DNA of 24,744 nt from Candidatus Baldrarchaeum yapensis (GCA_016840465.1 JAEOSH010000029.1:1-24744), one strand, 5' to 3'. Shown: positions 2,530 to 17,623, numbered from the stretch's first letter. Translations and numbers: made by a program. The notes: generated by a model from the sequence alone, not told the origin.

Positions 2530-3042
2530 GTGCTCGTGAGCCATATTCGCTCAATCCCTCGAGTGTTGGAGATGATTTTCGAAAGAAAGGGTGCAATTAA
2601 GGTGCTAATGCTATTAATGATAGCGGAAGACGGAGCAAACGCGTTGGATATTTCTAAGAAACTAGGGCTACCCCTCGCAACCGTTTACAAGTATCTTAGG
2701 GAGCTGGAGGAGATGGGACTCGTAAAAAGGAAGAGCGTGGGCGGCAAGAGGGTATTTGTGAGCAAAGATTTTAGATTGAGAATTCAGTGGAGGGCGGATG
2801 GGGAGGAGCTTGAGTTTATGATATCCCCGAAGAACCTTGTATGCTTTCTTGCGATGGAAAGTCCCGATGTCTCCTATTTCATTGAGAGAAGGGGTCTGAG
2901 AAAGTTTCTGGAGTTTACGAGGCTGTATGAGGATTACGTTGACGGCAGGCTCACGCTCTCCATGATGGCGAGGATCCTCGGCGTGACGACGATGGAGGTT
3001 GCCGTTTTAATCGACGAGGTAGAGGCGGTTGCAACAGTATGA
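2530..3042 (+). CDS. Winged-HTH protein (ArsR/TrmB-like N-terminus) with UPF0175-like C-terminus; putative antitoxin/regulator
   Basis: ALDISKKLGLPLATVYKYLRELEEMGLV is a wHTH. LYEDYVDGRLTLSMMARILGV resembles UPF0175. Overlaps the downstream PIN gene by 14 nt. Confidence 0.8.
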   Translation: MLVSHIRSIPRVLEMIFERKGAIKVLMLLMIAEDGANALDISKKLGLPLATVYKYLRELEEMGLVKRKSVGGKRVFVSKDFRLRIQWRADGEELEFMISPKNLVCFLAMESPDVSYFIERRGLRKFLEFTRLYEDYVDGRLTLSMMARILGVTTMEVAVLIDEVEAVATV

Positions 3043-3523
3043 CTATTTAGTTGCGGATACGAGTTTCCTGGTGCATTTGGACAGAAGGGGGAGGGAGAAG
3101 CTAAGAGATCTTCTGATGAGAATTTTACGTGAGTTGAATGTGCGTCACGAGAAGATCATAATACCGCCAGTTGTAAAGCTAGAACTCGTGGATCAACCTC
3201 TTGAGCGGAGGATATATTTAGATTCGGTCGGCAGGTTTCAAGACCTCATAAATGAGGGCATTATTGAAGCGAGACGCATTGATTATGGGGATCCAAGAAT
3301 TTCCAAAGTTAGTGACGAGGCTCGGAGGTATCTAGCTAAGAAGGCGGGAAAATACGAGCACCTCGTTGAAAAGGCAGATATCGAGGTAATTGCACTGACC
3401 TTCAATTTGGTCTTCGAGGGGCACAGCGTCGTTGTTGCCGTCAGGGATAAGGCCCTTAAGGAGGTTCTACAAGCATCACTCAGGGTTCATAAACTCGCTA
3501 TTAAGGTTAAAATATTCGACTGA
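3029..3523 (+). CDS. PIN-domain protein (VapC / DUF3368-like)
   Basis: YLVADTSFL (first PIN Asp), IIIPPVVKLEL, ADIEVIAL, VRDKAL. TTG start. Confidence 0.85.
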   Translation: MQQYDYLVADTSFLVHLDRRGREKLRDLLMRILRELNVRHEKIIIPPVVKLELVDQPLERRIYLDSVGRFQDLINEGIIEARRIDYGDPRISKVSDEARRYLAKKAGKYEHLVEKADIEVIALTFNLVFEGHSVVVAVRDKALKEVLQASLRVHKLAIKVKIFD

Positions 3524-3654: not shown

Positions 3655-4767
3655 GTGATCATGCCCGAAGGTGGAGTCTTCAGGAAGAGAGTGGGGGAAT
3701 TCCAAAAACTGTTGAGAGAAAATGGTATCGACGCGGCCATGATAAGAACGCTTTCATCCTTCATCTACTTTACCGGCGTTAAGTGGCTCAGGCCAGCGCT
3801 GCTGATACCCGCCGATGGAGATCCGATTGCCTTCATTTTCGAATATGAGGCGGAGGAGTTCCGTGAGAGGACGTGGATAGAGGATGTGAGAACGTGGAGG
3901 AGGACCCCGGAGCTCATGAAATCCGTCACGGGAACAATAAAGGAGAGGAAGTGTAAGAGAGTTGGTTTCGACTATAGCGTGGAGCGGGACTCCTACGTCC
4001 TCTTCTTCGAACTGTTCAAGACGCTCAACCCGAGGGTGGAAGTGGTCGATGTGCACGGCCTCATCATGAAACTCAGGATGGTAAAGGATACCACGGAGAT
4101 TGAATACATACAGAAGGCATCAAATATCGCGGTCAAAGGGATGTCCTCGGCCGTGGATGCAGTCGATGTCAATGTGAGCGAGGTGGAAATTGCCGCCGAG
4201 GCCTACTATGCAATGATGAAGAGCGGATCGGAACATCCTCATGTTTACGTAAATATTGGACCGAGACCGAGGGTGCATGCGGAGCCCCGCGCCGACATTA
4301 AGGTAAAACCTGGAGACACAGTCAACATAGTGGTCGGTGCGGACTATATGAACTATCACAGCAACATGAGCAGAACGGTATTCGTGGGTTCTCCCTCCAA
4401 GGATAAAAGAAGGGCTCTTGAGGCGGTTATCGAGGCGCAGAGTCTAGCAATGGAGTCGCTCAAGCCGGGGGTCAAGCTTATTGATGTCGAGAAGAAGATA
4501 AGGGAGTTAATTGAAGAAAGAGGGATTGGAAAGTACTATGTGGAAGGATTTGCACACGGAGTCGGACTTCTCGTGGAGGAGGATCCAATAACAACAATTG
4601 TTGTCAAGCACCGACAGTATGAGGTCGTTGAGAACATGGTTCTTGCTTTCATACACGCGCCGCTGACAGTTCCCGGCGTGGGCTCCGTAAAATGCGAGGA
4701 CACCTTCGTGATAAGGGCCGATGGCACCAAGAGGTTCGTGGAGTACGATTATGAACTGATAAAGTAA
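3655..4767 (+). CDS. Peptidase M24 (Xaa-Pro peptidase/creatinase fold) family protein with non-canonical metal ligands
   Basis: Creatinase-type N-domain, LRMVKDTTEIEYI, HGVGL, VKCEDT. Three of five prolidase metal ligands are substituted. Confidence 0.9.
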   Translation: MIMPEGGVFRKRVGEFQKLLRENGIDAAMIRTLSSFIYFTGVKWLRPALLIPADGDPIAFIFEYEAEEFRERTWIEDVRTWRRTPELMKSVTGTIKERKCKRVGFDYSVERDSYVLFFELFKTLNPRVEVVDVHGLIMKLRMVKDTTEIEYIQKASNIAVKGMSSAVDAVDVNVSEVEIAAEAYYAMMKSGSEHPHVYVNIGPRPRVHAEPRADIKVKPGDTVNIVVGADYMNYHSNMSRTVFVGSPSKDKRRALEAVIEAQSLAMESLKPGVKLIDVEKKIRELIEERGIGKYYVEGFAHGVGLLVEEDPITTIVVKHRQYEVVENMVLAFIHAPLTVPGVGSVKCEDTFVIRADGTKRFVEYDYELIK

Positions 4768-4828
4768 CAACGTTTTTCTCCTTTACTGCCAATTTTATAT
4801 AGACCAGCCCGTTGGTGTGATGGGACCC

Positions 4829-5113
4829 ATGTCGAATATCAAACCTAGGGATGTAACTGGCCTCTTAGAAAAACTGAGCAGGGCCGGATATGAGATCAGG
4901 AGGCACTGTTGTGACCACTACATCGGCGATGGTGAGAGGTTGATATGTGCATTTGCAATCTATCCCTGCTGGGGCGAAATCAGAATATACGATCTGACGG
5001 AGGGAAATTTGCCCAAGAAGGTCACCAAAATCTTCAAAGAATTCGCCGATAGCCACTCATTAAAACTGATAATTAAGGGCGTGAGGCGGAGTTTCGGGAT
5101 ATTGCGCTGCTGA
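4829..5113 (+). CDS. Small Cys/His-containing hypothetical protein (weak HicA-like N-terminus)
   Basis: TATA-like TTTTATATA at 4793-4801 and GGTGTGA SD before ATG 4829 (ORF track start 4817). KPRDVTGLLEKL..GYEIRRHCCDHYI. Confidence 0.7.
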   Translation: MSNIKPRDVTGLLEKLSRAGYEIRRHCCDHYIGDGERLICAFAIYPCWGEIRIYDLTEGNLPKKVTKIFKEFADSHSLKLIIKGVRRSFGILRC

Positions 5114-5188
5114 AGACCCGGAACTCCTCTAACACTTTATTTCCAAAGCCTTTGATGAGAGCTGAGGTTGCAGTTTTGCAGCATCGAG

Positions 5189-6541
5189 TCAACTTATCTC
5201 CGAGGAGGATTCCTCATCCCCGCCTTTTGCCTTCTGATCCTCCGGCTTTAGGACCGATAGAAGATTCAGGAGCATATCCACCATCGGTCCGACCTTTCCA
5301 TCACACTCCTTCACAAATTTCGTGATGGTATCCCTCAGGGGCTCATCACTCCTCCCCATAACCTCTGAGACTATTTTTAGCAGTAAGGTCGTGGCGGTGT
5401 ACTGATCTAAGGGTTTAAGGTCGATGATTCTTGCATTCGCTCCAAAAATGTAGGGAAGCTCCGAGGACAATTTCTCGAACGTCGATGGGGTGGTCGTTAT
5501 AACGAGCGACGTGAGGGGGACCCGCTTCCTGATAATACTTTCGATGAATTGGAGGATCTCTCTCACCTCTCCTTCCGACGATACCGGAAGTTCAAGGAAC
5601 TCGTCAATCATCAAAACCAAGCGCCTTATGGCTCTCGCCCTCACAAGTCGCCCCATTAGCGCCCCTAACCCCTTTACCACACCCTCAACGCCGCTGACAG
5701 ATCCGTAGCTTTCCATGAACTTCTTGACGAGATCCTTTATCCTGTCGTGTTTTGACATTTCACCCAATATCCGATAGTACATGTCGGATAAACTCTGACA
5801 AGTGGACGGTGAAATGTAAACGGCCACAACATCTGGTATCTCTCTCAAGATCTTCCAATACGCGTAGAATAGAAGATAAGACTTCCCAGAACCGTAAGGT
5901 CCCCTGATAATTAGTATGCGCGGTTCCCTCCCGCCCGGCGCACCTTTCACAAGAGCGAGCAGTTCCCGTAAGTGTTCACCAAAGAGGGCATCAAAAAATC
6001 CACCCACTTTGCCCCACTTCTCCATCAAAACTCTGGTAAATATGCTTAGTAAGTGAGCGTGGAAAAGTGCATAAGCCTCAGACTCCGGTAGCGATCTGCC
6101 AATCTTCCTCATACCTTCCTCAAAGAGAATACCCTCACGCCTGCGGTTTTTGACGAATTTCAAAGGGAGCATCTTGCTAAAGGCAGCGACGGGGATTATG
6201 CGAACTCTGTAGGGTAGCACCTTGAGGCCGGGAATCTCCTCCCCCATTTCTTGGGAGACCCTGATGGCCTCCTGAAGCCCGCGCTCTGTCAGTTTCCAGA
6301 GATACTGCCGTCCCTCGATGAATCTCTCAACCCATCCCATCTCCACGAACTTATTCAATCTCCTGAGCACTCTTCTAAGATCAGCGGTACCTCTCTCGCG
6401 TGATGCAGTACTCATGCCGAGTGCTGTGAGAATCCTCGTAGTGGGGACAAGTTTCGGCTCCGGGGTCGAAAAAGATAGTAGAGTCTCGAGTATTCTGCAA
6501 GATAGCATATCTAATCTAATTTTATTATTAGTATTGGCCAT
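5189..6541 (-). CDS. N-terminal winged-HTH + P-loop (AAA/STAND-like) ATPase
   Basis: wHTH LRRVLRRLNKFVEMGWVERFIEGRQYLWKLTERG, Walker A GPYGSGKS, Walker B LVLMIDE. Start placed at ATG 6541 after a GGTGG SD (ORF track start 6577). Confidence 0.85.
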   Translation of the reverse strand: MANTNNKIRLDMLSCRILETLLSFSTPEPKLVPTTRILTALGMSTASRERGTADLRRVLRRLNKFVEMGWVERFIEGRQYLWKLTERGLQEAIRVSQEMGEEIPGLKVLPYRVRIIPVAAFSKMLPLKFVKNRRREGILFEEGMRKIGRSLPESEAYALFHAHLLSIFTRVLMEKWGKVGGFFDALFGEHLRELLALVKGAPGGREPRILIIRGPYGSGKSYLLFYAYWKILREIPDVVAVYISPSTCQSLSDMYYRILGEMSKHDRIKDLVKKFMESYGSVSGVEGVVKGLGALMGRLVRARAIRRLVLMIDEFLELPVSSEGEVREILQFIESIIRKRVPLTSLVITTTPSTFEKLSSELPYIFGANARIIDLKPLDQYTATTLLLKIVSEVMGRSDEPLRDTITKFVKECDGKVGPMVDMLLNLLSVLKPEDQKAKGGDEESSSEIS

Positions 6542-6740
6542 ACACGCCACCGATCCGCGCTCTGCTCGAAACCCCACGTTGGCAATTGGTGTTGTCTCTC
6601 GTCACCCATCAAATCTATAGCATTTATACCGTTTTTAAGTATTGTTCCACAGTAATATAAGCTTTGAGAGGATAGAAAGTCGTTATAAAAACGTCATAAG
6701 TGGGACGGAAAGCATAATGGAAGTATCGGAACTCATGGAA

Positions 6741-6761
6741 CAATATTTATAAATGATATTG
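6741..6761 (+). promoter_or_regulatory. TATA box (TTTATAAA 6746-6753) flanked by inverted repeat CAATAT-N9-ATATTG, upstream of the AAA/vWA operon
   Basis: Sequence caatatttataaatgatattg, about 35 nt before ATG 6788, which has a GGGGTGAT SD. Confidence 0.55.
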
Positions 6762-6787
6762 GACATATGGATTAGTGGGGTGATCGC

Positions 6788-7996
6788 ATGAGCGCAAGGT
6801 CAAGGAGGGGGGTTCACCCAAGTTTCCCGGTCTCGGAAGATTACAGGAGATCGGCAAATATAACGGTCGTCAGAGTGAATCATAGGGCCCTGGAGCGGTT
6901 GCTTATCCACAATTACAATTGCGGGAAAAACGCCATTTTCATATGGGGAGGAATAGGCATAGGAAAGAGCACGACGGTCAGGAGAACCTCACAAAAGCTT
7001 GCATCCCTCACGAGAAGGGAATTCATCGACTGGAACCGCGCCAACGGTTGTCTCAAGAAGAAGGTCATTGAGGACCCAGGTGAGTACTTTGTCTTCATCG
7101 ACATCAGGCTCTCGCAGTACGACCCCAGCGACCTCAAGGGGTTACCGGATCTGAGATCCGAGTTCGTGACGTGGCGCCCCCCGATGTGGTTCTACATTCT
7201 CACGTTGCCCCAAAGTGCCGGCATCCTTTTCCTCGACGAACTCAATCACGCCCCTCCCATGATACAGTCGGCGGCATTCCAACTGATACTGGACAGATGC
7301 CTCGGTGAATATAGCCTCAGCGACGGGGTAATGGTCGTTGCCGCGGGTAACAGACCTGAGGACAGCACCGCCGTCTTCAAGATGTCCAAGGCTCTCGAAA
7401 ACAGGTTTCTGCACGTGGAACTCAAGGCTCCTACCTTTGAGGAGTGGGAGAAGTGGGCCCTGGAGAACGACATCGACCCGAGGATAATAGCGTTCCTGAG
7501 ACTCAAGCCGGATCTTCTTTACGTGGAAAACGGATCAGGCCCCGCATACCCAACTCCCAGGGCGTGGGAGTTCGCAAGCAACTTAATAAAGGGCGTCGAG
7601 GATCCCGACGATGTTGAGATGTATGTGGCCTCGGCGGTGGGCTTTGGTGCCGCCCGTGAGTTCCGCGAGTTTCTGAGGTTTTCCCAAATAAGGATCGAGG
7701 AGATACTGGAGAATCCGGAGATTCTGAACGAATCTAGATACAGGCGAATGGACGTGAGGGCGGTAATAGCGTACAGCCTCGGGTCGTACTTCAAGATGCA
7801 CAAGACTAGGGATGTCCTGAGGAAGATCATCAGGGTTCTCCGCTACTTCAACCCCGAGTTCCGGATGGTTGTGATAAAGCACCTCAAAATTGTAGATGAG
7901 GGGATGCTCGAGGAGGAGGCGATGGGAAACCCCGAACTTGTGCGAATGCTCGAACTTCTCAATGAGGCGATGGAGGGGGATGGGTATGAAGGTTGA
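6788..7996 (+). CDS. MoxR-related AAA+ ATPase (AAA_5 type)
   Basis: Walker A WGGIGIGKS, DIRLSQYDPSDLKGLP, Walker B ILFLDELN, sensor-I AAGNR, Arg finger ALENRF, sensor-II PTPRAWE, all intact. Confidence 0.93.
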   Translation: MSARSRRGVHPSFPVSEDYRRSANITVVRVNHRALERLLIHNYNCGKNAIFIWGGIGIGKSTTVRRTSQKLASLTRREFIDWNRANGCLKKKVIEDPGEYFVFIDIRLSQYDPSDLKGLPDLRSEFVTWRPPMWFYILTLPQSAGILFLDELNHAPPMIQSAAFQLILDRCLGEYSLSDGVMVVAAGNRPEDSTAVFKMSKALENRFLHVELKAPTFEEWEKWALENDIDPRIIAFLRLKPDLLYVENGSGPAYPTPRAWEFASNLIKGVEDPDDVEMYVASAVGFGAAREFREFLRFSQIRIEEILENPEILNESRYRRMDVRAVIAYSLGSYFKMHKTRDVLRKIIRVLRYFNPEFRMVVIKHLKIVDEGMLEEEAMGNPELVRMLELLNEAMEGDGYEG

Positions 7997-9269
7997 GGAG
8001 TTTGAGAGGAGGATCCTGCGGGCAAAGCTTAGGCTGATACGCGACCACCCCTTCTTCGGCTTTCTGCTGACGGTCATCGAAATAAAACCGGACAGTTCCG
8101 TCAGCAGGGTGCTAATACATCCCGACTTCGTGGTCAGAATGAACCCCAAATGGGCGATGAGTCTCAGTGACGAGGAATTGGAGTTTGTCCTCTGTCACGT
8201 CACCCTGCACTACGTGTTGGAGCACACCTCAAGAATGGGGCTGAGGGATCCACGTGTCTGGCATCTCGCATGTGATATTGCAGCCAACAACATCCTAGAG
8301 TTCAACGGCATAATGGTGCCTTCTTGGTCCCCCTACGTTCCAGAGTTCGGGGACAAAAGCGCCGAGGAAATTTATTACCTATTGTACAGCAAGAATCAGC
8401 AGATGTGCCTAGGATCTCCTGACCGCCAGTGGGGTGAGGGTTGCGGAGGATCGATGGGGACGGGATACAAGGGGTTTGGCGGAGATTTCGGTGGAAACCT
8501 CCACGGTATGTGTGAGCCATTCGATGAATGGGCGGAGAAAAGTTTTGGGGAGGCTGACGGTTGCAGGAAAGGCGATTCAAATGCGCATCAGAGGGGTATG
8601 GATCTGAAAGGGTTGCTGGTTAAGGCCTACAACTTCGCAAAAGCTCATGGGAGGACGCCACTAGGGATAAGCGAAATCGTTGACGTGGGAGAGAAGAGGG
8701 TGCTCGACTGGAGGGCTATGCTCGAAAGGCTCATCTACAAACTGATCCCGTGTGACTACGCGTGGCACCCTCCGTCAAAGAAGTCCTACTTCTTGGGCGT
8801 ATATCTTCCCGGCGTGAGGAAAGAGATCTTGGACATCGTGGTCGCGCTCGACACCAGCGGATCGATAAGCAACAGCGAATACGGCTACTTCCTGAGGGAA
8901 GTGATCGAAATTTTCCGAAACTTCGAAAATGTGAACATTACGGCGATCATGTGCGATGCGAAAGTGCAATGCGTTGTGGAGAACCTAACTAGGCCGGAAG
9001 ATGTACTCGAACACCTCAGGACAAGGATAGGTTATGGCGGAACCGACTTCCGCCCGGTCTTCGAGTGGGTCGAGAGGAACAAGCCGAATTGCCGTCTCCT
9101 GATATACTTCACCGACGGGATGGGGGACTACCCTCGCCGAGAACCCGGCTACCCGGTCATCTGGGTGATCGTGGGTGATGAGTATAGGCACTACGGGCGC
9201 CGCTACCACCCGCCCTTTGGGCACGTAATCAATGTGGATCGTCGAGAGCTCTGGGAGGTGGTTTCATGA
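7986..9269 (+). CDS. DUF2201 metallopeptidase-like domain + vWA domain protein
   Basis: AKLRLIRDHPFFG, HVTLH at the HExxH position, WHLACDIAAN, W..PSKK, MIDAS LDTSGS...GGTDF...YFTDG. Real start is ATG 7986, overlapping the ATPase stop by 11 nt. Confidence 0.92.
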   Translation: MKVEEFERRILRAKLRLIRDHPFFGFLLTVIEIKPDSSVSRVLIHPDFVVRMNPKWAMSLSDEELEFVLCHVTLHYVLEHTSRMGLRDPRVWHLACDIAANNILEFNGIMVPSWSPYVPEFGDKSAEEIYYLLYSKNQQMCLGSPDRQWGEGCGGSMGTGYKGFGGDFGGNLHGMCEPFDEWAEKSFGEADGCRKGDSNAHQRGMDLKGLLVKAYNFAKAHGRTPLGISEIVDVGEKRVLDWRAMLERLIYKLIPCDYAWHPPSKKSYFLGVYLPGVRKEILDIVVALDTSGSISNSEYGYFLREVIEIFRNFENVNITAIMCDAKVQCVVENLTRPEDVLEHLRTRIGYGGTDFRPVFEWVERNKPNCRLLIYFTDGMGDYPRREPGYPVIWVIVGDEYRHYGRRYHPPFGHVINVDRRELWEVVS

Positions 9270-9631
9270 AGACGGATTTCGCCTCCTCACTTGCCAAGAA
9301 ATTGTGCGAACTCATGTACCAGCATTCCCCCGGCACCGTAAACTACGAGTATATTTGCTCGATAGAGAGAGGCGCGCGCACGCTACTAAGAATATTAAGG
9401 GGTCTTGTGGAAATCGTAAGACCCGAGTTAAGGTCAAAGGATGTAGAGAAGTCCATAGAGGAGATCGTGAGGAGATTTTTGAGGGAGGTTGAGGGGGGAG
9501 GAGATCCCGTCGAATATGTAGATTTCGTGGTCACGGTGTGCCACGAGGTATTCGAGAAGTTTTTCCTCGATGTTCTAAAAACTGAGCGGTCGAATGAAAA
9601 TCCAGAGGGGAGGGGGAACTCCAATGTCTGA
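9266..9631 (+). CDS. Hypothetical alpha-helical protein (operon gene 3)
   Basis: ATGA overlap with the vWA stop and GGAGGTGG SD. No recognised motif. Confidence 0.8.
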   Translation: MKTDFASSLAKKLCELMYQHSPGTVNYEYICSIERGARTLLRILRGLVEIVRPELRSKDVEKSIEEIVRRFLREVEGGGDPVEYVDFVVTVCHEVFEKFFLDVLKTERSNENPEGRGNSNV

Positions 9632-10595
9632 CTCTTACCCGGGCATTCCGTTACCGGGCATTCTCGAAGAAAGCCTGAGGTTTGGCGTGTCCTATTCCCC
9701 GGATATCTCTAAGAGGGCAGAAGATATCGTCAAAAGGTGCGAGGTGGAGGTTTGGAACATAGAGAACCCCAGATTGAGGGCCCTAACGGCCTCGCGACTG
9801 CTGATTTTCTACGGTGCATCTTATACTTCGATAGCACAGAGGATCCTGGAGGATGAGGAGATACTAGCCGATGACATTGCAGTGAGGGCGTTCGCCTCCG
9901 AGATATACCTCACTTCCCTAATTTCCGGGTCGCGCCTCATGAGGGGCGTGCTTTACAAACTCGCCAGGAGGTTAAAGCTGAGGGGGTTTAGAGAAATTTC
10001 CAAGCGTGTTACGGTGACCGGGACTCTAAGCATCCTAGATGTCATGTGCGCCAACACCAACCTGCTGAGTTACTTCTTGAGTTGCTACGCTCTTCCTTCC
10101 CATGAAAGGGACTTCCGGTTTGTGTACCGGTGGTCGAATTACATGACGGCCCAGAGGGTGACGTACAAGGAGGATGATCCGCACCAGAAGCTACTAAAGG
10201 AGAGGGCGGCTGCCCTCCTCCGGGGGATTATTCCGATAGCTGTTGGCAACCTCTATTATACCAAGCACTCGAGAAGATTCAGTGAGTCATGGAGATTGTT
10301 GCTGGAGGAGTTTGCAATATTGAGAGAAGCAACCCACACGATGATCTCGCTGGTTAGGAGAATAAATGACTCGATCTTCGTAGTAGAGGTGCTATTGACT
10401 CTTGCAGAGGCGCTTGCCAGTAGCGGCAGGGTCGTTCCACTGATATCGTCTCTGAGAGAAGTTGCGAGGTTTCTAAAAGGCGGGGACGTTCCGGCGCTCG
10501 TAACTATAGCTTTTGATATGTATCTCGAGGGTTACAGGCAGGAGCGGAGATACCTGAAGTGGACGTTTCTGGAAAAGGTGGGTGAGCTGTCATGA
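9624..10595 (+). CDS. Hypothetical alpha-helical protein (operon gene 4)
   Basis: ATG 9624 after GAGGGGG SD, overlapping the previous stop by 8 nt. About 323 aa, Leu/Ala/Arg/Glu-rich, no recognised motif. Confidence 0.82.
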   Translation: MSDSYPGIPLPGILEESLRFGVSYSPDISKRAEDIVKRCEVEVWNIENPRLRALTASRLLIFYGASYTSIAQRILEDEEILADDIAVRAFASEIYLTSLISGSRLMRGVLYKLARRLKLRGFREISKRVTVTGTLSILDVMCANTNLLSYFLSCYALPSHERDFRFVYRWSNYMTAQRVTYKEDDPHQKLLKERAAALLRGIIPIAVGNLYYTKHSRRFSESWRLLLEEFAILREATHTMISLVRRINDSIFVVEVLLTLAEALASSGRVVPLISSLREVARFLKGGDVPALVTIAFDMYLEGYRQERRYLKWTFLEKVGELS

Positions 10596-11398
10596 GGGCG
10601 GTGACGCTTTTCAAGGATCTGGTGCTGAAGGTTGCAAAGATATTAGAACTGAGGGAGGAGATTTTGAAAGAAATCGGCACGCTTATCAAGATTCTTCGCG
10701 GCAGAGTGGAGCAACTGATGAGAAAAATTGAAGAACTGCAGGCTGAGGAGCGGGAACTTCATTTTCTGTGGGAGATCCGAAGAGAGTTGGAGGATCTCAA
10801 TAGCTACATAGGGTATAGGTATCACAACCCCGGATCCCTAGCACGGATGATTCGTAAAGAGTTAAGAAAGTACATCAGTTATCTGAAGGAGCGGGATCAT
10901 ATCTGCAAGAGGATACATGGGGCCATGAAGCGGGCGGAGGAGCGGGCATCCGAAAAGGACCTGAAGGCACCTGATCATGTCATGGAAAATGTGCGTAAGA
11001 TTGCGGAGGAGTTGAGTCAAGAATTGGCGAAAATTGTGATATGCGGCGCGAAAAGCCCCCATAAGCCATCTGTTGTAATGAGGATTACGGCCATCAACGT
11101 CTTAATTGCCTGCGCGGCTGTGCTAATAGGGAGGTTATCTGTCGCTTATCCGGCGTCGTACACGATATACGTGAAGGATATCTTTGAACTGATCGAAAAT
11201 TCCGCCATAATACGCGATAGACTGAAGCGGTACTACATTCACGATTTTGTGATGATGTCGCCAGTGGATCTAGAAATTTTGCTTGCATTGTTGAATGGCA
11301 TCGCGGACGAGGTGCTGAGGTCCTGCAGGCTGACATATCACATAATCATGGAGATAAAACGGGAGATAAAGCCGATCTTCCTCCTCAAGTCACTATAA
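10592..11398 (+). CDS. Hypothetical protein with N-terminal coiled coil (operon gene 5)
   Basis: ATGA overlap and GGTGAG SD. Heptad-like LRGRVEQLMRKIEELQAEERELHFL. Confidence 0.82.
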   Translation: MRAVTLFKDLVLKVAKILELREEILKEIGTLIKILRGRVEQLMRKIEELQAEERELHFLWEIRRELEDLNSYIGYRYHNPGSLARMIRKELRKYISYLKERDHICKRIHGAMKRAEERASEKDLKAPDHVMENVRKIAEELSQELAKIVICGAKSPHKPSVVMRITAINVLIACAAVLIGRLSVAYPASYTIYVKDIFELIENSAIIRDRLKRYYIHDFVMMSPVDLEILLALLNGIADEVLRSCRLTYHIIMEIKREIKPIFLLKSL

Positions 11399-11529
11399 CG
11401 AAGAAGATTGATGCCGCGGCAAAAATGCAATTTTTATGTCAACGTCATCTTTTATCGAGACATTGTCTCGAGAATACGATAGTCGTTCTTGCCATGGCAA
11501 GTCATAGTTTTAATGATGCGGTGGTGAAA

Positions 11530-11814
11530 ATGGCCACGTACACTGCCATTGTGGTCCGCCAAGAGACAAAGAGGCTACTGGAGCGGGAAAAGGGAGATAA
11601 GAGTTGGGACGACTTCCTTCTCGAACTTCTTCGGATCGCGAAGGAGCGAGAAGTGAAGGAGGCAATAAAGAGAATACAAAACAGACTAAGGGTTGTGGAA
11701 AGGGCAATCATGGAATCCGAGGAGAGCATGAGGAGGGAGTTCAAATTAAGGGGTGATTCTGGACACGAATTACGTGATACATTTGTCGAAGAGCGGGAGG
11801 CTCGAGGAGGTTAG
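11530..11814 (+). CDS. Archaeal VapB-type (RHH-like) antitoxin, C-terminus probably extended by loss of its stop
   Basis: MATYTAIVVRQETKRLLEREKGDKSWDDFLLELL is a typical archaeal antitoxin start. GGTGA SD before ATG 11530. Reads 62 nt into the PIN gene. Confidence 0.75.
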   Translation: MATYTAIVVRQETKRLLEREKGDKSWDDFLLELLRIAKEREVKEAIKRIQNRLRVVERAIMESEESMRREFKLRGDSGHELRDTFVEEREARGG

Positions 11815-12129
11815 AAAACGGAGGATCCTCTACATCACGTTCATAACTCTATATGAACTGATGAGAGGGGAAAGCTTTTGCCGGATTTTATGTGGACGAG
11901 GCGAAGCGAGATTACGAGAAGGTTTTCATGATCTTGGATTTTGATAATGAGGCCATTAGGGGTGGTATCGAAAAATATGGGCGATACTCAGGGCGGAGGC
12001 ATGCTCATCGATGAGTGAGACCTTATGATAGAGGCCATCTGCATAGCGAACTCCCTTCCGCTCGCAACCTTAAACAAGAAGCATTTTAAGAGGCTTACAA
12101 AGTTCGGCCTAAGACCGGAAGACTTATGA
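11753..12129 (+). pseudogene. VapC PIN toxin pseudogene
   Basis: Stitched reading MILDTNYVIHL...YELMRG / KAFAGFYVDEAKRDYEKVFMILDFDNEAIR / KIWAILRAE / MLIDE*DLMIEAICIANSLPLATLNKKHFKRL. At least 3 frameshifts (~11870, ~11960-11975, ~11999) and an in-frame TGA at 12016-12018. Confidence 0.85.
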
Positions 12130-12353: not shown

Positions 12354-14033
12354 ATGTGTGCGCAGAAGTTGGCCCCTCTTCTCACAAAGGTCAAGGTGAG
12401 CAGGTTCTTCTATAAGGCATGCGGTTACACAGATGAGGACCTTAAGCGTCCGATCATAGGAATAGTAAACAGCTTTAACGAGGCCTGCCCGGGTCATATT
12501 CACCTTAAGATGCTTGCGGACGCCGTAAAGGCAGGCGTGTATGCGGCGGGTGGGACTCCGATAGAAATCAACGTCATCGGACCCTGTGCTGCTTATTCGA
12601 GGAATTACAGATACGACCTGCCAACGCGAGACACAATAGCCAACAGCATGGAGATACAACTGATGCAGTCCGTATGCGACGGCATTGTATGTATGTGCAC
12701 ATGCGATAAAATAGTTCCGGGGATGTGGCTCGGCGCCGCGAGGCTCGATCTTCCCACCATATTCGTAACCGGAGGGCCATCCCTGCCCGGAGAGTTCAAG
12801 GGGGAGGAGACGTGCTTCCCGCTTGATGCGCTGGTCCCCATAATCTCAGATTACGCGAAGGGTCTCATTTCCGAGGAGGAGTTGTGGAGAGAAATAGGAG
12901 TTGCCGAAGAAACATGGATAAGGACCTACGGCGCGTGTCCCGAAATGACTACCGCGAACACCGTGCAGATGCTGACAGAGGCGATGGGTCTCGCGTTCCC
13001 ATATTCGACAACAACTCCTGCTCCATACTCGCTCAAGTTGAGACTTGCGAGAAGGAGCGGAATGTGCATCGTGGAAGCCGCGAGAAAACGCCTTAGCTTC
13101 AGGAAAATAGTAACGGAGAAGTCTTTGGAAAATGCCTTGAGAGTTCTATGCGCTGTCGGTGGCGGGACAAATGGGGCATTGCACGTATTCGCTCTCGCGT
13201 ACGAACTTGGCCTCTCCGATAAAATAAACCCGGACAGGCTGGATGAGATCAGCAGGTCGACCCCGTTTCTCTCCGCAATTAGGCCAAGTGGGCCCTTTAC
13301 TGTGGTCGACTTCCATGAGGCGGGTGGGGTTCCGGGCGTCATGAGGGAGTTGGGCGACCTGATCCACAGGGATGCCTTGACCGTAACCGGAGAGACGATA
13401 GGTGCGATCATCGAGAGCGCGTCCATAAAGAGAAGAGATGTAATAAGATCGCGGTCGGATCCCGTGTATCCCGAGGGGGCATTTGCGGTACTCAAGGGCA
13501 ACATCGCGCCGAGAGGGGCGATATGCAGGTACACCGCCGTGAAAAAGGAACTTCTCCAATTTGAGGGAGAGGCGAACGTATGCAACAGCTTGGAGGAGGC
13601 GGTAATAAAGGTCGTTACGGGAAAGGTCGAGGCCGGACAGGTGCTGGTGGTTAGATATGAAGGCCCTCGGGGAGGCCCCGGGATGACAGAGATAGTCATA
13701 GTGCTATTCCTCCTGAGAATGCTTGGTATAGAAAATATAGCGGTGGTTACGGACGGAAGGTACAGCGGCACGGCGGAAAAAGTTCTTTATATCGGACATG
13801 TATGTCCGGAGGCCGCCGTCGGGGGACCAATAGCGGTCGTGGAAGACGGAGACGTGATCGAAATAGACGTACCCGCGCGTAAGATAAACGTTAAACTGCC
13901 GGATAAGGAGATAGAGCGCAGGTTGAAGGAGTGGACAAGACCGAAACCGAGGGTGAGGAGGGGAGTACTTGCAATATGGGCGCAACTTGCAGAGCAGGCG
14001 GATGTGGGCGCAGTACTTCGTTCAAAGATCTAG
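12354..14033 (+). CDS. IlvD/Edd family dehydratase (dihydroxy-acid dehydratase-like, divergent)
   Basis: RPIIGIVNS, PGHIHL, CDKIVPG, GACPEMTTANT, GGGTN, RYEGPRGGPGM, TDGRYSG, GHVCPEAAVGG. ilvD symbol withheld because of active-site divergence. Start is ATG 12354 or GTG 12345. Confidence 0.93.
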   Translation: MCAQKLAPLLTKVKVSRFFYKACGYTDEDLKRPIIGIVNSFNEACPGHIHLKMLADAVKAGVYAAGGTPIEINVIGPCAAYSRNYRYDLPTRDTIANSMEIQLMQSVCDGIVCMCTCDKIVPGMWLGAARLDLPTIFVTGGPSLPGEFKGEETCFPLDALVPIISDYAKGLISEEELWREIGVAEETWIRTYGACPEMTTANTVQMLTEAMGLAFPYSTTTPAPYSLKLRLARRSGMCIVEAARKRLSFRKIVTEKSLENALRVLCAVGGGTNGALHVFALAYELGLSDKINPDRLDEISRSTPFLSAIRPSGPFTVVDFHEAGGVPGVMRELGDLIHRDALTVTGETIGAIIESASIKRRDVIRSRSDPVYPEGAFAVLKGNIAPRGAICRYTAVKKELLQFEGEANVCNSLEEAVIKVVTGKVEAGQVLVVRYEGPRGGPGMTEIVIVLFLLRMLGIENIAVVTDGRYSGTAEKVLYIGHVCPEAAVGGPIAVVEDGDVIEIDVPARKINVKLPDKEIERRLKEWTRPKPRVRRGVLAIWAQLAEQADVGAVLRSKI

Positions 14034-14066: not shown

Positions 14067-15461
14067 TTAAAAGCCTAAGTACATTTTTGTTTTTCTCTGA
14101 ACGTCCCTCAGTTCCTTTGCCGTCAGGAGTTTTATTCCATGTTCTCTTACTTCTTGGATTTCATCTTCCCTCAGCTCGTATCCGAAGTACGACACTAACA
14201 CTCTTTCTCTAACCCTTTTGCCGTAGTCTCTTGCGAACCTCTCCGCGTTTCTGATGAGTTGCTCGACCTTGTCGAATTTCGCACTGCCCCAGAAGTGCAC
14301 CTCAAATACGTATGCCTCATCGTTCAGTAATCCCACGGCGTCTATCTCATAACCACTTCCCCTCAGATCGAAAACCTCTCTAAACGGAGGTATCACCAGC
14401 TTCTGCCCCAACGCGTCCCTCAATTCTATCTCCGTGGTTATGGCTCTCAGCATCTCCCGAAACAACGCCTCAAACCCCAAACTCGAAATGTAAATTGCTT
14501 TCCTTGAGATCTTCCCCAAGCTTGGAATCTCCTGATTCAATAACCACGCCTGGAACACCTTATCACATATAAAGTACTCGGAGTGCTTCTTCCCCTTCTT
14601 TATCTTCACTAATAAGCCATTCTCCTCCAATCTCCTCAGATAGGGGCTCGGATCTTTATAAAGCCTATTCTCTATCTCGTAGAAGCGGTTACTCCCCCTC
14701 GCCACCAGATGGAGAATGTACCTCTCCTCCGCCTGCAGGCTGTCCATCAGCGCGGAGAAGTACACGTCAAGGTCGCCCCTAGGATTTATAAGTCTGAATA
14801 GGGCCTCACGCGGGGAAAGTCCACTCGAAATTACCTGCTCAATTATCTTCTTCGCGTAAAAGGGATTCCCGGCGGCAATCTCCGCAACCTCCCGCGCCCT
14901 CTCTTCGTCCAGGCTGTGCCTGAGTGCCAACTCGAAAATAGCCTCAAAACTCATAGGCCCAATGAATAACAGCGTAAACTCGCGAAATAGAGGCGCAAAG
15001 TACTTCATGGTCGATCTTCTCACGAAGCCGACCGCCGACGAGGAGAGTATCACACTTTCCCCTCCACGCCCCCTCCTAGCCTGTATCTGAGACCTAACGT
15101 ATCTGGCAACCTCCTCCACTTTCCCGAATGGACGATACCTCGCCAGCGTCTGAAGCAGAGACGAAAACTCGTCTATCATGATGATGTGGTCATCCATTTC
15201 GAATAGCGCCCTTATGGCGTACCGAGAATCGGCAACCGGTCTTTCCCCCATGAGAACGAAAACGTCCTCCGGCGATAGTACCTCATAACCATCGATAAGA
15301 AGAACTCTTTTCCCCTCACTTACTAGTATATCTCGAACTCTCTCTAATAACGTTGTTTTCCCGATGCCCCTTAGCCCATAAATGAGCAAATTCGATTTCA
15401 TCTTCACGTGATTGAGGATTACCTTGATCTCCTCCTCCCTATCCACAAAGTGATCACTCAT
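14067..15461 (-). CDS. Archaeal ATPase (ATPase_2) + internal wHTH + DUF234/PD-(D/E)XK-like C-terminal domain
   Basis: FVDREEEI, Walker A GLRGIGKT, Walker B IMIDEF, GNPFY, wHTH YLRRLEENGLL, C-terminal EIDAVG...FEVH. Confidence 0.92.
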   Translation of the reverse strand: MSDHFVDREEEIKVILNHVKMKSNLLIYGLRGIGKTTLLERVRDILVSEGKRVLLIDGYEVLSPEDVFVLMGERPVADSRYAIRALFEMDDHIIMIDEFSSLLQTLARYRPFGKVEEVARYVRSQIQARRGRGGESVILSSSAVGFVRRSTMKYFAPLFREFTLLFIGPMSFEAIFELALRHSLDEERAREVAEIAAGNPFYAKKIIEQVISSGLSPREALFRLINPRGDLDVYFSALMDSLQAEERYILHLVARGSNRFYEIENRLYKDPSPYLRRLEENGLLVKIKKGKKHSEYFICDKVFQAWLLNQEIPSLGKISRKAIYISSLGFEALFREMLRAITTEIELRDALGQKLVIPPFREVFDLRGSGYEIDAVGLLNDEAYVFEVHFWGSAKFDKVEQLIRNAERFARDYGKRVRERVLVSYFGYELREDEIQEVREHGIKLLTAKELRDVQRKTKMYLGF

Positions 15462-15480
15462 GCCATAACCCCATATTCAT

Positions 15481-15519
15481 TAGCCTATTCAAAATAGGCT
15501 ATCATGCATAGGTTATAAA
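15481..15519 (-). promoter_or_regulatory. TATA box (TTTATAA, 15519-15513) and 9-bp inverted repeat TAGCCTATT-caa-AATAGGCTA (15481-15501) upstream of the ATPase
   Basis: Perfect 9-bp arms with a 3-nt spacer, lying between the TATA box and the start codon at 15461. Confidence 0.6.
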
Positions 15520-15680
15520 TCTTGCTCAAGTAGTTATATGCTTAAGTAAAATTTCCGACACTATCCGAAATGATCATATAAACTGTTCATGCTCAATGCC
15601 TTTAAATATAGAACCTATCGATGTGCTCCACTCATAGAACTCGCAAAATAAACGGTAAAAATGGGCATAATTTTCCACGA

Positions 15681-15717
15681 AAAATAAAAATGAGGTGGGA
15701 AAGGAAGCATGCTTCCT
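15681..15717 (-). terminator. Candidate terminator: 16-bp palindrome AGGAAGCATGCTTCCT followed (minus strand) by TTTTTATTTTT
   Basis: Palindrome at 15702-15717, 18 nt past the stop of the 15735 gene, then a T-tract on the minus strand. Confidence 0.4.
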
Positions 15718-15734
15718 GTTGAGAGCCGAGCACA

Positions 15735-17057
15735 TTAGTGGTAAAGGTATGTTGGTCTTGCGGGGATCGCCATGGCAGGAATGGCCTTTGTTTTCCCTTT
15801 TCGGGTTATTGCGGCAATAACTCCAATTATTATCGCGACAATTACAGCAATTACACCGATACCTAGGACAAGGGCTCCGTATCTTGATGGGATGGTCATA
15901 TGGAACTCCGTGATGGCAACGCTCTGTGATGCGACGCTGACATCTATCTGCTCACTTCCTCCGGCCTGTTTGGTCACCGCCTTCATCAAGCGGCCGACAG
16001 CAACCCTCTTGAGCATCCACGACAGCTTAAACGTCAGGTACCTCTCTATAGCTTCCAGCAATGGAGATACGAAATACTCCTTTATGAACTCGGTAACGAG
16101 CAACTCGACCAGTGATGGCACGTCAAACAGGTACTCCTCAATTATCTTGAACACCCAATCCGTGATCTTGGATGTGAACTCGGCATCATCAATGTCCAAC
16201 CGCAATTTTATGTTCGAGAACGTGACCTTCAGGGAATCAACGTCCTGAATGAACTTCAAACTCATCGGCTTGTCCACGAGCGCCTCTGCGTAGCCCGAAA
16301 CATTGATTTTCTCCGTTCCTGGTGCCGCCCACGTGACCTTATCCATCAAAGCCCCATCCACGTACAACTCCATTACAATGCTACTGTCAACGTTGTAGTT
16401 CACGACGAAGTCTGCATAAAGGTCGAAGTCGACCGATCCCTCAAATAGCACCTTGTCATCCATCAGGAACCTCAGCAGAAATTTTCCGTAACCAACTTTT
16501 GTCGACACGTTCTGCTTGCTCGTGTAGCTGTAACCTTCATTAGCGACCGGAAGGATCTTTGAACTGTTCAGGTTGAACGTCAGCGATGCAATGCCCGTGA
16601 AGTTGACTCGCTGCTCCCCAATCCCAGCATAAAAGTTGAAAATGACCGCCCACGCCAAAACCCCGGCCATAGTCATGTTTATGTAGTTGTCGGTGTCTAA
16701 AACCACCGTCAGCAGGTAGTTGCCCCGATCGAAGCTCGTAGTGATGTTGCCCTCTTCTCCCACACCCCACCATGACGACGTGTTTATCGTGCGATTCGCG
16801 GTCAACTCGGTACCGAGATAAAGCATGGTGCCCACTATCGGTATCTCGTACGATAGGTCTAGGTCTATTAGCTTCATTGCATTGCTTTGAACGGTTCCCG
16901 CCTCCCGATACCACCACAATGCAATGCTCCTAGTGTGGGTCTCGACGCCTTGCTCTAGGGGCATTGCTTGGAAGCAAATGGAAGTTAATGGCATCAACAA
17001 CAGTCCTGCGATCAGCAATAACGTGATCATCAGGGAGGTACTCCCAGCCATCCTCAT
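15735..17057 (-). CDS. Secreted, C-terminally anchored surface glycoprotein
   Basis: Start ATG 17057 after an AGGAGG SD, ATGA-coupled to the upstream gene. Signal peptide MRMAGSTSLMITLLLIAGLLLMP, 8 N-X-S/T sequons (NRT, NTS, NIT, NMT, NFT, NSS, NVS, NVS), C-terminal TM helix followed by RKGK. Confidence 0.85.
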   Translation of the reverse strand: MRMAGSTSLMITLLLIAGLLLMPLTSICFQAMPLEQGVETHTRSIALWWYREAGTVQSNAMKLIDLDLSYEIPIVGTMLYLGTELTANRTINTSSWWGVGEEGNITTSFDRGNYLLTVVLDTDNYINMTMAGVLAWAVIFNFYAGIGEQRVNFTGIASLTFNLNSSKILPVANEGYSYTSKQNVSTKVGYGKFLLRFLMDDKVLFEGSVDFDLYADFVVNYNVDSSIVMELYVDGALMDKVTWAAPGTEKINVSGYAEALVDKPMSLKFIQDVDSLKVTFSNIKLRLDIDDAEFTSKITDWVFKIIEEYLFDVPSLVELLVTEFIKEYFVSPLLEAIERYLTFKLSWMLKRVAVGRLMKAVTKQAGGSEQIDVSVASQSVAITEFHMTIPSRYGALVLGIGVIAVIVAIIIGVIAAITRKGKTKAIPAMAIPARPTYLYH

Positions 17058-17623
17058 GCCCCCTCCTGCGAGCCCGTCGGTGTGGTGACCGTTGGCGGTG
17101 TGACAGTCGGCCGGGCCGCCTTGTATCCTCTGTATATCCATAGACTATAAACAGCACTTCCGAGAATCAGGATCCCGATGACTATCATTGCAATGTCGCC
17201 AGCAGCGGGCCTGAAGGCATGCGCCTTATAACTCTCCTTAGCGATGATACCGAACTCTACGTGCACATCATCGATCCCTTTGTTGAGGATCCTCACCTCA
17301 TATTCCCCGGAAACCTGAGCGGTGAACGTTCTCGTAATGCTAACAAGATCGATGTCCGCCCAGACGATGTTCCCATTCGGATCCAATATCAATACGTCGA
17401 AAACGCTACCGCTCGCGTTTATGTAAAACTTGTCCCCCTCATTGAGTTCCGGCCACCACGTCCACTGGTAACCGGGCTCTATGGTTCTTGTCCAAGGCCC
17501 GTGCTCCACCCATATGTACTCCTCCACTTCCTTCACTGACAGCACTAGGCCGCCTATTATGCAACAGAACCCGATTACAAAGAGAATCACGCCTAGCCCT
17601 AAATATTCTTTCCCCTCCGGCAC
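17054..17623 (-). CDS. Two-TM membrane protein with extracellular beta-sandwich (GOLD/emp24- or PPC-like)
   Basis: GTG start after AAGGTGAGG SD. TM - FDVLILDPNGNIVW...FTAQVSGEYEVRILN - TM. The fold call is pattern-based only. Confidence 0.75.
   Translation of the reverse strand: MPEGKEYLGLGVILFVIGFCCIIGGLVLSVKEVEEYIWVEHGPWTRTIEPGYQWTWWPELNEGDKFYINASGSVFDVLILDPNGNIVWADIDLVSITRTFTAQVSGEYEVRILNKGIDDVHVEFGIIAKESYKAHAFRPAAGDIAMIVIGILILGSAVYSLWIYRGYKAARPTVTPPTVTTPTGSQEGA

Follow-up and report, generated by a model that had tools for sequence, protein, structure and literature searches.

A MoxR-vWA gene pair of viral families coupled to three orphan genes in the chromosome of a Baldrarchaeia archaeon

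A MoxR gene paired with a peptidase-vWA gene is known from the group 2.2 jumbo phages, in which the two products were proposed to act as a virion-assembly chaperone (Iyer et al. 2021, PMC7824862). The two families concerned, phrog_1297 and phrog_1314, also occur in N4-like Schitoviridae, Bacillus phage G and cyanophage S-TIM5. In the archaeal Acidianus two-tailed virus (ATV), the MoxR protein p618 interacts with the vWA protein p892, with p387 and p653, and with the filament-forming p800 (Scheele et al. 2011, reviewed in PMC4124505), and the ATV vWA protein has no peptidase-like domain (PMC7824862). Ternary systems in which MoxR and vWA are joined by a VMAP or an inactive-STAND component were put forward as NTP-dependent conflict systems, and those described are almost entirely bacterial (Kaur et al. 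2020, PMC7159879). In the present study, the same type of core was found in an archaeal chromosome. The locus is a one-species variant of the known viral module, since it joins a virus-typical chaperone pair to three proteins without counterpart in any other organism, and its status as a new multi-gene system cannot yet be shown.

The locus belongs to a single species of uncultured Asgard (Baldrarchaeia) archaeon and is chromosomal; coordinates are those of the window, that is, the whole 24.7-kb stretch of DNA analysed. Five genes on the plus strand overlap in series and encode a 402-aa MoxR-type AAA+ ATPase (6788..7996), a 427-aa zincin-like (DUF2201_N) and vWA (DUF2201) protein (7986..9269) and three ORFans, namely orf1 (121 aa, 9266..9631), orf2 (323 aa, 9624..10595) and orf3 (268 aa, 10592..11398). 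The successive overlaps were 11, 4 (ATGA), 8 and 4 (ATGA) nt, and the gene callers of other assemblies placed the vWA start at 7980 (17-nt overlap) and the orf2 start at 9594 (38-nt overlap). A purine-rich SD-like motif preceded every start, and the five genes are probably co-transcribed. Just 3' of the orf3 stop, an inverted-repeat scan revealed the palindrome TGCCGCGGCA followed by A/T runs (11407..11440, plus strand), which likely marks the end of the transcription unit as a putative terminator. On the other side, a divergent intergenic region of 246 nt (6542..6787), read directly from the sequence, separates the operon from a minus-strand gene encoding a 450-aa wHTH and STAND/ORC-like P-loop NTPase (5189..6541; with a GTG start, the 5' end is 6577 instead of 6541). 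This region may serve as a promoter; it contains A/T-rich TATA-like boxes, among them TTTATAAA, which spans about 6749-6756 and lies 32-39 nt upstream of the MoxR ATG. It also has two 48-nt arms (6602-6649 / 6736-6783) that form an imperfect inverted repeat with 71% complementarity.

The island is flanked by galT/galK, an M24 peptidase gene and ilvD, and toxin-antitoxin genes and a second STAND-like NTPase occur in its surroundings. Downstream of the operon, a plus-strand gene for a VapB-like antitoxin (94 aa, 11530..11814) was called in all assemblies and scored 26.1 bits against PF02697, just under the cut-off of 27.9. The VapC (PIN) gene that follows on the same strand (11753..12111) is decayed, as three-frame translation showed its remnants at 11753-11872, 11922-11966 and 12019-12111 to be each in a different frame and separated by stops, and no intact PIN-domain toxin gene lies downstream of vapB. 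The sequence-only reading had described this layout, with its serial overlaps, its MoxR-vWA core and three unrecognised helical proteins, a divergent region of about 250 nt shared with the wHTH-ATPase and a decayed VapBC after the operon, and each of these components was recovered where it had been placed.

The ATPase matched phrog_1297 with an E value of 2.3e-77 (residues 29-371 on profile positions 8-333 of 356), and its Pfam AAA_5 score of 22.9 bits was barely over the cut-off of 22. When the window protein was aligned with 8 relatives, the Walker A residues G54, G57, G59, K60 and S61 (GxxGxGKS), the Walker B residues D150 and E151 (DE), the sensor-1 asparagine N188, and R206 and R258 were all invariant. 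The second protein contained DUF2201_N (83.4 bits, cut-off 23.2) and then DUF2201 (80.4 bits, cut-off 26.4), matched phrog_1314 at E 6.6e-77, and ended at its vWA domain without any C-terminal effector domain. Its MIDAS site (DxSxS, Thr, Asp) was complete, with D289, S291, S293, T353 and D377 invariant in 34 sequences, and residues 147-203 formed a variable disordered linker. The AF2 model (pLDDT 81.8) matched the vWA domains of complement, integrin and NorD with Z values of 10-14 and an rmsd of about 3 A over 130-160 aligned residues. In place of the HExxH of an active zincin, the window protein reads HVTLH (HVTLHYVLEH), in which the catalytic Glu is replaced by Val and the three His are kept.

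The MoxR-vWA core matches an already described two-gene virus module (PMC7824862): both proteins belong full-length to the phage families phrog_1297 and phrog_1314 at E values of about 1e-77. The likeness extends to gene order, orientation, the zincin-like N-terminal domain and the vWA domain with MIDAS. Relatives of the ATPase were encoded by at least 546 IMG/VR contigs and in 835 phage records, and proteins on IMG/VR contigs showed 40-46% identity to the window ATPase; the vWA gene adjoined the ATPase gene on the same strand in 72 of the 80 viral loci fetched from IMG/VR. The ATPase-then-vWA order was also seen in cultured N4-like phages and cyanophage S-TIM5, and the nearest metagenomic contexts of the pair all looked viral (6/6). 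Unlike the phage pair, the window locus is chromosomal and Asgard and has no viral hallmark genes nearby, its zincin Glu is lost where HExxH is kept in 60/60 IMG/VR copies and in virus-context copies fetched separately, and it has three translationally coupled ORFans without counterpart in any of the 80 viral loci.

Among cellular relatives, a comparison is offered by one Asgard family (f14 in GTDB), which carries DUF2201 vWA and MoxR genes of the same families. Both genes were present in 11/11 of its genomes, but on different contigs or far apart and beside unrelated metabolic genes; the f14 vWA copies were only 30-35% identical to the window's, and the MoxR copies roughly 32-43%. The f14 vWA copies keep the three His and the MIDAS site and have likewise lost the zincin Glu (7/7). 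In a quick tree, the window MoxR adjoined virus-context sequences on a long branch (1.06) and was excluded from the clade with the f14 copies (SH-aLRT 98). Since the pair was not found in the four same-order genomes and the window MoxR lies beside virus-context sequences in the tree, a horizontal origin of the pair is suggested. We see an even chance that a viral chaperone pair was acquired horizontally and fixed in one Baldrarchaeia species, in which it now forms one coupled operon with three lineage-specific helical proteins. The direction of transfer falls short of proof in view of the quick tree, its long window branch and the cellular DUF2201 pairs that also occur in bacteria (control matches in Thermotoga and Deinococcus).

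Alternatively, the locus might be what is left of an integrated virus or other mobile element, stranded without present host function and with ORFs that have not yet decayed. The viral nearest relatives of the pair, the five surrounding ORFans typical of archaeal virus cargo, the decay already suffered by the neighbouring VapC and the loss of a zincin Glu kept in 60/60 viral copies all agree with such a remnant. However, no capsid, terminase, portal or integrase family was found in the whole 24.7-kb window, nor any tRNA or flanking direct repeats, so that the location did not qualify as a virus or provirus. Furthermore, in 12 assemblies the five operon ORFs are unbroken and the ATPase and MIDAS motifs preserved, although the adjoining VapC is broken, codon usage is host-like, and changes in the zincin-like domain are synonymous only (seven of the seven shared SNPs). 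The Glu is also lost in the vertically inherited f14 copies, which speaks for a cellular role without proteolysis and against decay. A remnant appears unlikely.

MoxR-vWA pairs commonly mature metal-containing enzymes, and NorQ-NorD is among the structural matches of the window's vWA protein. A housekeeping maturation chaperone like NorQ-NorD, CbbQ-CbbO, CoxD-CoxE or RavA-ViaA was considered; a candidate client would be the IlvD/Edd-type Fe-S dehydratase, whose gene follows 950 nt further along the same strand. RavA-ViaA, CbbQ-CbbO and NorQ-NorD share with the window pair an assumed mechanism, in which an AAA+ ring and a vWA/MIDAS adaptor act on a dedicated client. They nevertheless belong to other MoxR subfamilies, their vWA partners have no zincin-like domain, and the window operon, unlike theirs, holds no client enzyme gene. 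The terminator-like element and the VapBC remnant separate the operon from the dehydratase gene, and linkage to a dehydratase was seen in no related locus examined. Moreover, the pair was not found in the same-order genomes, one of which keeps an IlvD homologue elsewhere, and viral sequences are closer to the window MoxR than the cellular Asgard copies are. Such a housekeeping role is very improbable.

The pair is further distinguished from its viral relatives by orf1-3. Together with the NTPase and the 97-aa ORF at the left edge of the island, these had no detectable homologue in searches that reached up to 5.8 billion proteins and also covered 300 Asgard genomes and the 80 viral loci, and orf1-3 matched no Pfam, NCBIfam, PADLOC or PHROG family. 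The orf1 protein, which had no homologue in the 300 Asgard genomes and whose 90% cluster consisted of only two near-identical sequences, was modelled by AF2 from the single sequence as four helices (pLDDT 60). For orf2, neither 5.8 billion clusters nor 1.84 billion representatives, scanned in full with phmmer, yielded anything but the protein itself; the Atlas model (pLDDT 0.41) was predicted all-helical and had TPR/HEAT-like neighbours at TM <=0.5, and the protein is possibly, at low confidence, an all-helical solenoid or TPR-like repeat. The sequence-cluster search with orf3 returned nothing but its own cluster, and the 300 Asgard genomes gave one noise match with six stops. The Atlas model of orf3 had a pLDDT of 0.46; its N-terminal half is charged and, like its C-terminal part, predicted helical, and the hydrophobic segment between them at about 161-185 (KD19 maximum 2.38, residues 161-179) is a possible membrane helix. 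As the orphan folds are poorly predicted, 'helical client' is a mere description.

The orphans nevertheless look like real genes more than chance ORFs, given their host-like codon usage, their SD-like motifs and their intact ORFs in 12 assemblies. The in-frame codon-usage log-odds of orf1-3 were 0.227, 0.263 and 0.279, with all other five frames negative, against a genome training set with a mean of 0.337, an sd of 0.071 and a 5th percentile of 0.223. The operon was free of stops and frameshifts in the 12 assemblies of the species, which came from several samples, and the island was present in 8/8 contigs carrying the identical flanking M24 gene. The orphan SNPs (3 non-synonymous, 2 synonymous) are too few to show purifying selection. 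It is the operon structure, in a single species only, that links the orphans to the core. The viral pairs lend this tie no comparative support, as no conserved third gene accompanies them in the 80 viral loci, where their neighbours are unrelated to one another and to orf1-3.

In the divergent NTPase, both the Walker A (GPYGSGKS) and the Walker B (LVLMIDEF) motif are intact; the protein gave weak matches to NACHT, AAA_22, AAA_16 and ATPase_2 and, in the PDB, to ORC4/NLR structures; its N-terminal 164 aa matched the wHTH-type Replic_Relax weakly (E 0.006, under the cut-off). It had no homologue at E<=1e-5 in the 300 Asgard genomes and no paralogue in the genome, and only divergent adjacency links it to the operon, which it may regulate. 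A lineage-specific MoxR-vWA 'ternary' conflict or defence system was weighed, in which this STAND-like NTPase would sense an invader, MoxR and vWA would control assembly, and at least one orphan, e.g. the possibly membrane-inserting orf3, would be the effector. Like the ternary systems proposed as NTP-dependent conflict systems (PMC7159879), the locus has a MoxR and vWA core, extra variable components, a STAND-type NTPase nearby and a patchy, island-like occurrence. In addition, the island sits among toxin-antitoxin genes and near the second STAND-like NTPase, its components include orphans, orf3 has a hydrophobic segment, and polymorphism in the population is concentrated in the vWA gene (23 SNPs counted, against 1 in MoxR). 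Unlike in the ternary systems, however, the vWA protein has no C-terminal effectors but an N-terminal zincin-like domain. Even at E<=10, orf1-3 gave only noise against a Pfam copy of uncertain VMAP-C coverage, and no VMAP-C-like protein was seen. The 23 vWA SNPs are not skewed overall to non-synonymous changes (10 N, 13 S), orf1-3 are without any Pfam family, the NTPase is Walker-intact, divergently placed and without homologues, described ternary systems are almost entirely bacterial, and it is viruses themselves that encode relatives of the pair. A conflict or defence role of this kind is unlikely.

Assignment to the iSTAND ternary systems was rejected. In these, the third component is an operonic inactive STAND protein, and the vWA protein combines a CoxE-type 4-helix N-domain with C-terminal effectors, whereas the window NTPase, the intact Walker motifs of which set it apart from iSTAND proteins, is on the opposite strand and the vWA N-domain is DUF2201_N. 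The sequence-only reading recognised no named system here, and PADLOC-DB 2.0 agreed: no known anti-phage system was obtained, with only a 20-bit mad8 match for the NTPase and 12-13-bit LmuB matches, regarded as noise, for orf3. It had also proposed a conserved six-gene machine. The components and gene structure stood, but the conserved system did not, as the orphans and the NTPase occur in no organism but this one and hence beside MoxR/vWA in no other genome; this, with the match to a described module, is largely what the reading had itself named as counting against it. That the five-gene operon and NTPase work together in this Asgard lineage as a specific conflict or assembly system of ternary-like type is quite unlikely; if true, the system would have entirely new effector or structural parts, and in it a domesticated viral MoxR / pseudo-zincin-vWA chaperone would control how three newly evolved helical proteins assemble or insert into the membrane.

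Under the preferred reading of an acquired viral chaperone pair, the MoxR ATPase ring would drive ATP-dependent remodelling of proteins, and the vWA protein would be its adaptor, with the MIDAS site holding the client. The zincin-like N-domain, having lost the catalytic Glu and kept the three His, would be a binding module and not a protease. The co-expressed helical ORFans would most likely be clients or structural partners that bind MoxR/vWA, with orf3 possibly membrane-anchored. The precedent for this proposal is the ATV tail-development chaperone p618/p892 with its three further virion proteins, an archaeal MoxR-vWA pair that works with several virus-specific proteins and the only experimental precedent for MoxR and vWA with about three lineage-specific partners. 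Unlike ATV, the window locus is cellular; the ATV proteins are far larger (618 and 892 aa), and the likeness drawn here is one of component set. Finally, the 97-aa ORFan on the plus strand at the left edge of the island (4820..5113), with the M24 peptidase gene on one side and the NTPase gene on the other, matched no Pfam or PHROG family; it was called as a gene in all assemblies, with a coding score (0.057) that was the lowest among the genes scored.

The operon is located in an island of about 7.5 kb within a metagenome-assembled genome of 2.27 Mb that is 96% complete, and the island is bounded by an M24-peptidase gene (3661-4767) on the left and an IlvD/Edd dehydratase gene (12354-14033) on the right. 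Following the M24-peptidase gene are an ORFan of 97 aa (4820-5113) and, on the reverse strand, the gene of a winged-helix/STAND-like NTPase (5189-6541), which is separated by an A/T-rich intergenic region of 246 nt from five forward-strand genes encoding a MoxR-type AAA+ ATPase (6788-7996), a zincin-like/vWA protein (7986-9269; the vWA protein), and three orphan proteins, orf1 (9266-9631), orf2 (9624-10595) and orf3 (10592-11398). The coordinates confirmed the sequence-only reading in that these five genes overlap by 11, 4, 8 and 4 nt, and a GGAGG/GGTGA-like motif was present upstream of each start codon. A palindrome with a T-run lies between orf3 and a VapB-like gene (11530-11814), and pieces of a PIN domain in three reading frames occupy the downstream end of the island. 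The intergenic region also contains an imperfect inverted repeat of 48 nt (6602-6649 and 6736-6783, 71% complementary, with arms 86 nt apart), which could be an operator or a product of chance in A/T-rich DNA. Neither integrase, capsid, terminase and tRNA genes nor att-like direct repeats were detected in the window, which is no recognisable provirus. Comparison with four genomes of the same order showed that the M24 gene alone was held in common, with no wider synteny, and the borders of the island could not be defined.

The score of the ATPase on Pfam AAA_5 was a low 22.9 bits; it matched the phage family phrog_1297 ("ATPase") over its full length with an E-value of 2e-77, and all of the AAA+ motifs that are invariant among its relatives were kept in the alignment. 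The vWA protein contained DUF2201_N (putative metallopeptidase) and the vWA-like DUF2201, both far over the Pfam cut-offs, and matched the phage family phrog_1314 with an E-value of 7e-77. Its AlphaFold2 model, built from 34 homologues (pLDDT 81.8), showed a well-defined N-domain joined by a disordered linker (residues 147-203) to a vWA domain, the latter of which resembled the vWA domains of complement, integrin, Rea1 and NorD proteins (Z 10-14); in both PDB fold searches the matches were taken up by this domain and not by the N-domain. The MIDAS residues were invariant in the alignment, and the zincin motif was HVTLH, in which the three His are present and the catalytic Glu is gone. Across 12 near-identical assemblies of the species, polymorphism was concentrated in the vWA gene, with 10 non-synonymous and 13 synonymous SNPs at 8114-9241, against one SNP in the MoxR gene and one in orf2. 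The block 8168-8330 carried only synonymous changes, and a cluster at 8467-8611, in the part encoding the disordered linker, carried 7 non-synonymous and 3 synonymous ones; this pattern could mark a tract brought in by recombination from a diverged allele, or else diversification at this site.

The ATPase and the vWA protein have abundant relatives in viruses. Cultured phages with a homologue of the ATPase accounted for 835 records, among them N4-like Schitoviridae, Bacillus phage G and cyanophage S-TIM5, and in a scan of IMG/VR a relative was present on at least 546 viral contigs. A vWA homologue lay on the same strand in 72 of the 80 viral loci fetched, mostly 0.1-1.8 kb downstream. The six closest metagenomic homologues of the window ATPase (36-51% identity) were all on contigs where very small genes of no known kind line up in one direction; these contigs bear a T4 endonuclease V-type gene, ERCC4, a methylase or an integrase, and two of them are listed in IMG/VR. 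Iyer et al. 2021 (PMC7824862) described a MoxR ATPase together with a vWA protein whose N-terminal part is a metallopeptidase domain in jumbo phages of group 2.2, and proposed a role in virion assembly from analogy to ATV p618/p892. The pair is a known viral module. Among the six virus-context contigs, the neighbouring genes showed no similarity to one another or to orf1-3, and nothing besides the pair is conserved around the viral copies. In two RefSeq phage records inspected, the gene directly downstream of the ATPase gene (4969-6069 and 4945-6093) was labelled "HNH endonuclease", which is also the label of phrog_1314, the family matched over its full length by the vWA protein of the window; this label looks like a mis-annotation propagated in databases.

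Within the host lineage, searches of the other four genomes of the order, which are 84-91% complete, did not detect the pair. A search of a collection of genome contigs with the vWA protein as single query revealed no relative. In the rest of the phylum, finds of the vWA protein came mainly from one GTDB family, f14 (11 of 11 genomes), and the ATPase was found in f14, with weaker matches in several further families. In f14, the genes of MoxR and DUF2201-vWA were both present in all 11 sampled genomes, unlinked and amid ordinary unrelated metabolic genes. The zincin Glu was absent from all seven f14 vWA copies examined (HLVLH, HAIIH and others), in which the three His and the MIDAS were kept. 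The f14 pair looks like one with a conserved cellular, non-proteolytic role. In a quick maximum-likelihood tree of 76 ATPases, the window protein lay on a long branch next to virus-context sequences and outside a clade of 51 sequences holding the f14 copies (SH-aLRT 98, tree unrooted). This suggests that the window pair was acquired separately, most likely from a virus or another mobile element; with a tree that is quick and has no root, we infer the direction of transfer. The cellular Asgard copies, of f14 and of the window, appear to have lost the zincin Glu repeatedly, and all sampled viral copies keep it, which suggests that the pair may have different roles in cells and in viruses. Since the equal change occurred in the vertically inherited f14 copies, the loss of Glu would seem to be a cellular adaptation rather than decay.

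The in-frame codon scores of the three orphans were 0.23-0.28, inside the range of the genome (mean 0.34, 5th percentile 0.22), and the scores were negative in every other frame. Furthermore, their starts are coupled and preceded by SD-like motifs, and all three are unbroken in 12 assemblies that come from several sequencing projects and have 99.65-100% identity to the window; thus, the orphans are likely genes. Their SNPs (non-synonymous/synonymous: orf1 1/1, orf2 0/1, orf3 2/0) were too few to gauge selection. The decayed VapC gene and the presence of ORFans might indicate that the island is a dead remnant of a mobile element; however, the ATPase and MIDAS motifs are intact, as are the ORFs, and the codon usage is host-like. 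The orphans are predicted to be all-helical: orf1 gave four helices in a single-sequence AlphaFold2 model (pLDDT 60, insufficient for searching by fold), the Atlas models were poor for orf2 (pLDDT 0.41) and orf3 (0.46) with none for orf1, and searching a protein atlas with orf1-3 produced no useful lead (scores at most 0.85). Residues 161-185 of orf3 (11072-11146) form a strongly hydrophobic segment of 19-25 residues, with a mean Kyte-Doolittle value of 2.38 over 19, and are either a helix in the membrane or one buried in the protein core.

Homologue searches returned orf2 itself only, whether in a word-indexed search of 5.8 billion protein clusters, with phmmer run exhaustively on 1.84 billion representatives or in a check of 40 relatives. 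The protein-cluster search with orf3 gave its own cluster only, and the 90%-identity clusters of the orphans held near-identical copies of the same species only. In 300 genomes of the phylum, orf1 and the NTPase had no match, and the single match of orf3 contained six in-frame stops and was taken as noise. In 80 IMG/VR loci and in 14 further related loci, nothing matched orf1-3 or the NTPase; within their own genome, orf1, orf3 and the NTPase had no match elsewhere, and orf1-3 shared no similarity. The NTPase comprises 450 aa; its N-terminus probably forms a winged helix (weak Replic_Relax match), and its P-loop domain is STAND/ORC-like and keeps the Walker motifs intact. The proposal that the five operon genes and this NTPase constitute a new six-gene system was not borne out, because four of the six parts are restricted to a single species. 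The core is a new variant, cellular, Glu-less and orphan-coupled, of the known viral MoxR-vWA module.

MoxR ATPases and vWA proteins work in pairs such as RavA-ViaA, CbbQ-CbbO and NorQ-NorD. In the present operon, an intact AAA+ ATPase and an adaptor whose MIDAS is intact and whose zincin domain is dead are tightly coupled in translation to three predicted helical proteins, and by inference from such established pairs, the ATPase ring and the vWA adaptor may remodel or assemble the co-expressed orphans. The zincin-like N-domain, having lost the Glu and kept the His ligands, would bind its target without cleavage. Modelling orf1 together with the vWA protein as a complex gave a score of 0.00, which weighs neither for nor against binding. 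The closest precedent is ATV, whose p618 binds p892 as well as three other proteins of the virus, including a filament-forming one (PMC4124505). Stimulation of the ATPase has also been shown for p618. Given its adjacency, the NTPase may act as a regulator of the operon through the intergenic region between them. A defence or conflict system resembling the ternary systems of Kaur et al. 2020 (PMC7159879) is an attractive alternative in view of the island context and the polymorphism of the vWA gene, but an inactive operonic STAND and C-terminal effectors are missing, no Pfam match pointing to VMAP-C was obtained for orf1-3, and PADLOC gave no match. A housekeeping role in maturation of the downstream dehydratase is without comparative support. 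If remodelling of the orphans is correct, an Asgard archaeon has retained a viral chaperone pair, inactivated its peptidase and wired it to proteins unique to that archaeon. Hundreds of phages and viral contigs carry the pair, yet its function there is putative, and the orphans offer a concrete candidate client set for its biochemistry. A literature search found no paper joining Asgard, virus and MoxR. The wider significance is limited because conservation ends at the pair and the organism is uncultured.

Other genes of the window also deserve mention. A second STAND-like NTPase (ATPase_2/nSTAND6, 464 aa), dissimilar to the first, is encoded on the reverse strand within 14067-17623 and adjoins same-strand ORFs of 468 (or 409) and 189 aa without a family match, and the three may form another small orphan module. 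At 2530-3523 on the forward strand, just upstream of the M24 gene, a TrmB-type winged-helix gene overlaps a gene placed in PIN_halo by the precomputed matches of other assemblies, and the two are likely a toxin-antitoxin-like pair. In the VapC remnant, the contig from SRR7051323 lacks one A at 11971, which re-phases part of it to an ORF of 78 aa, indicating that the decay of this toxin gene differs among strains.
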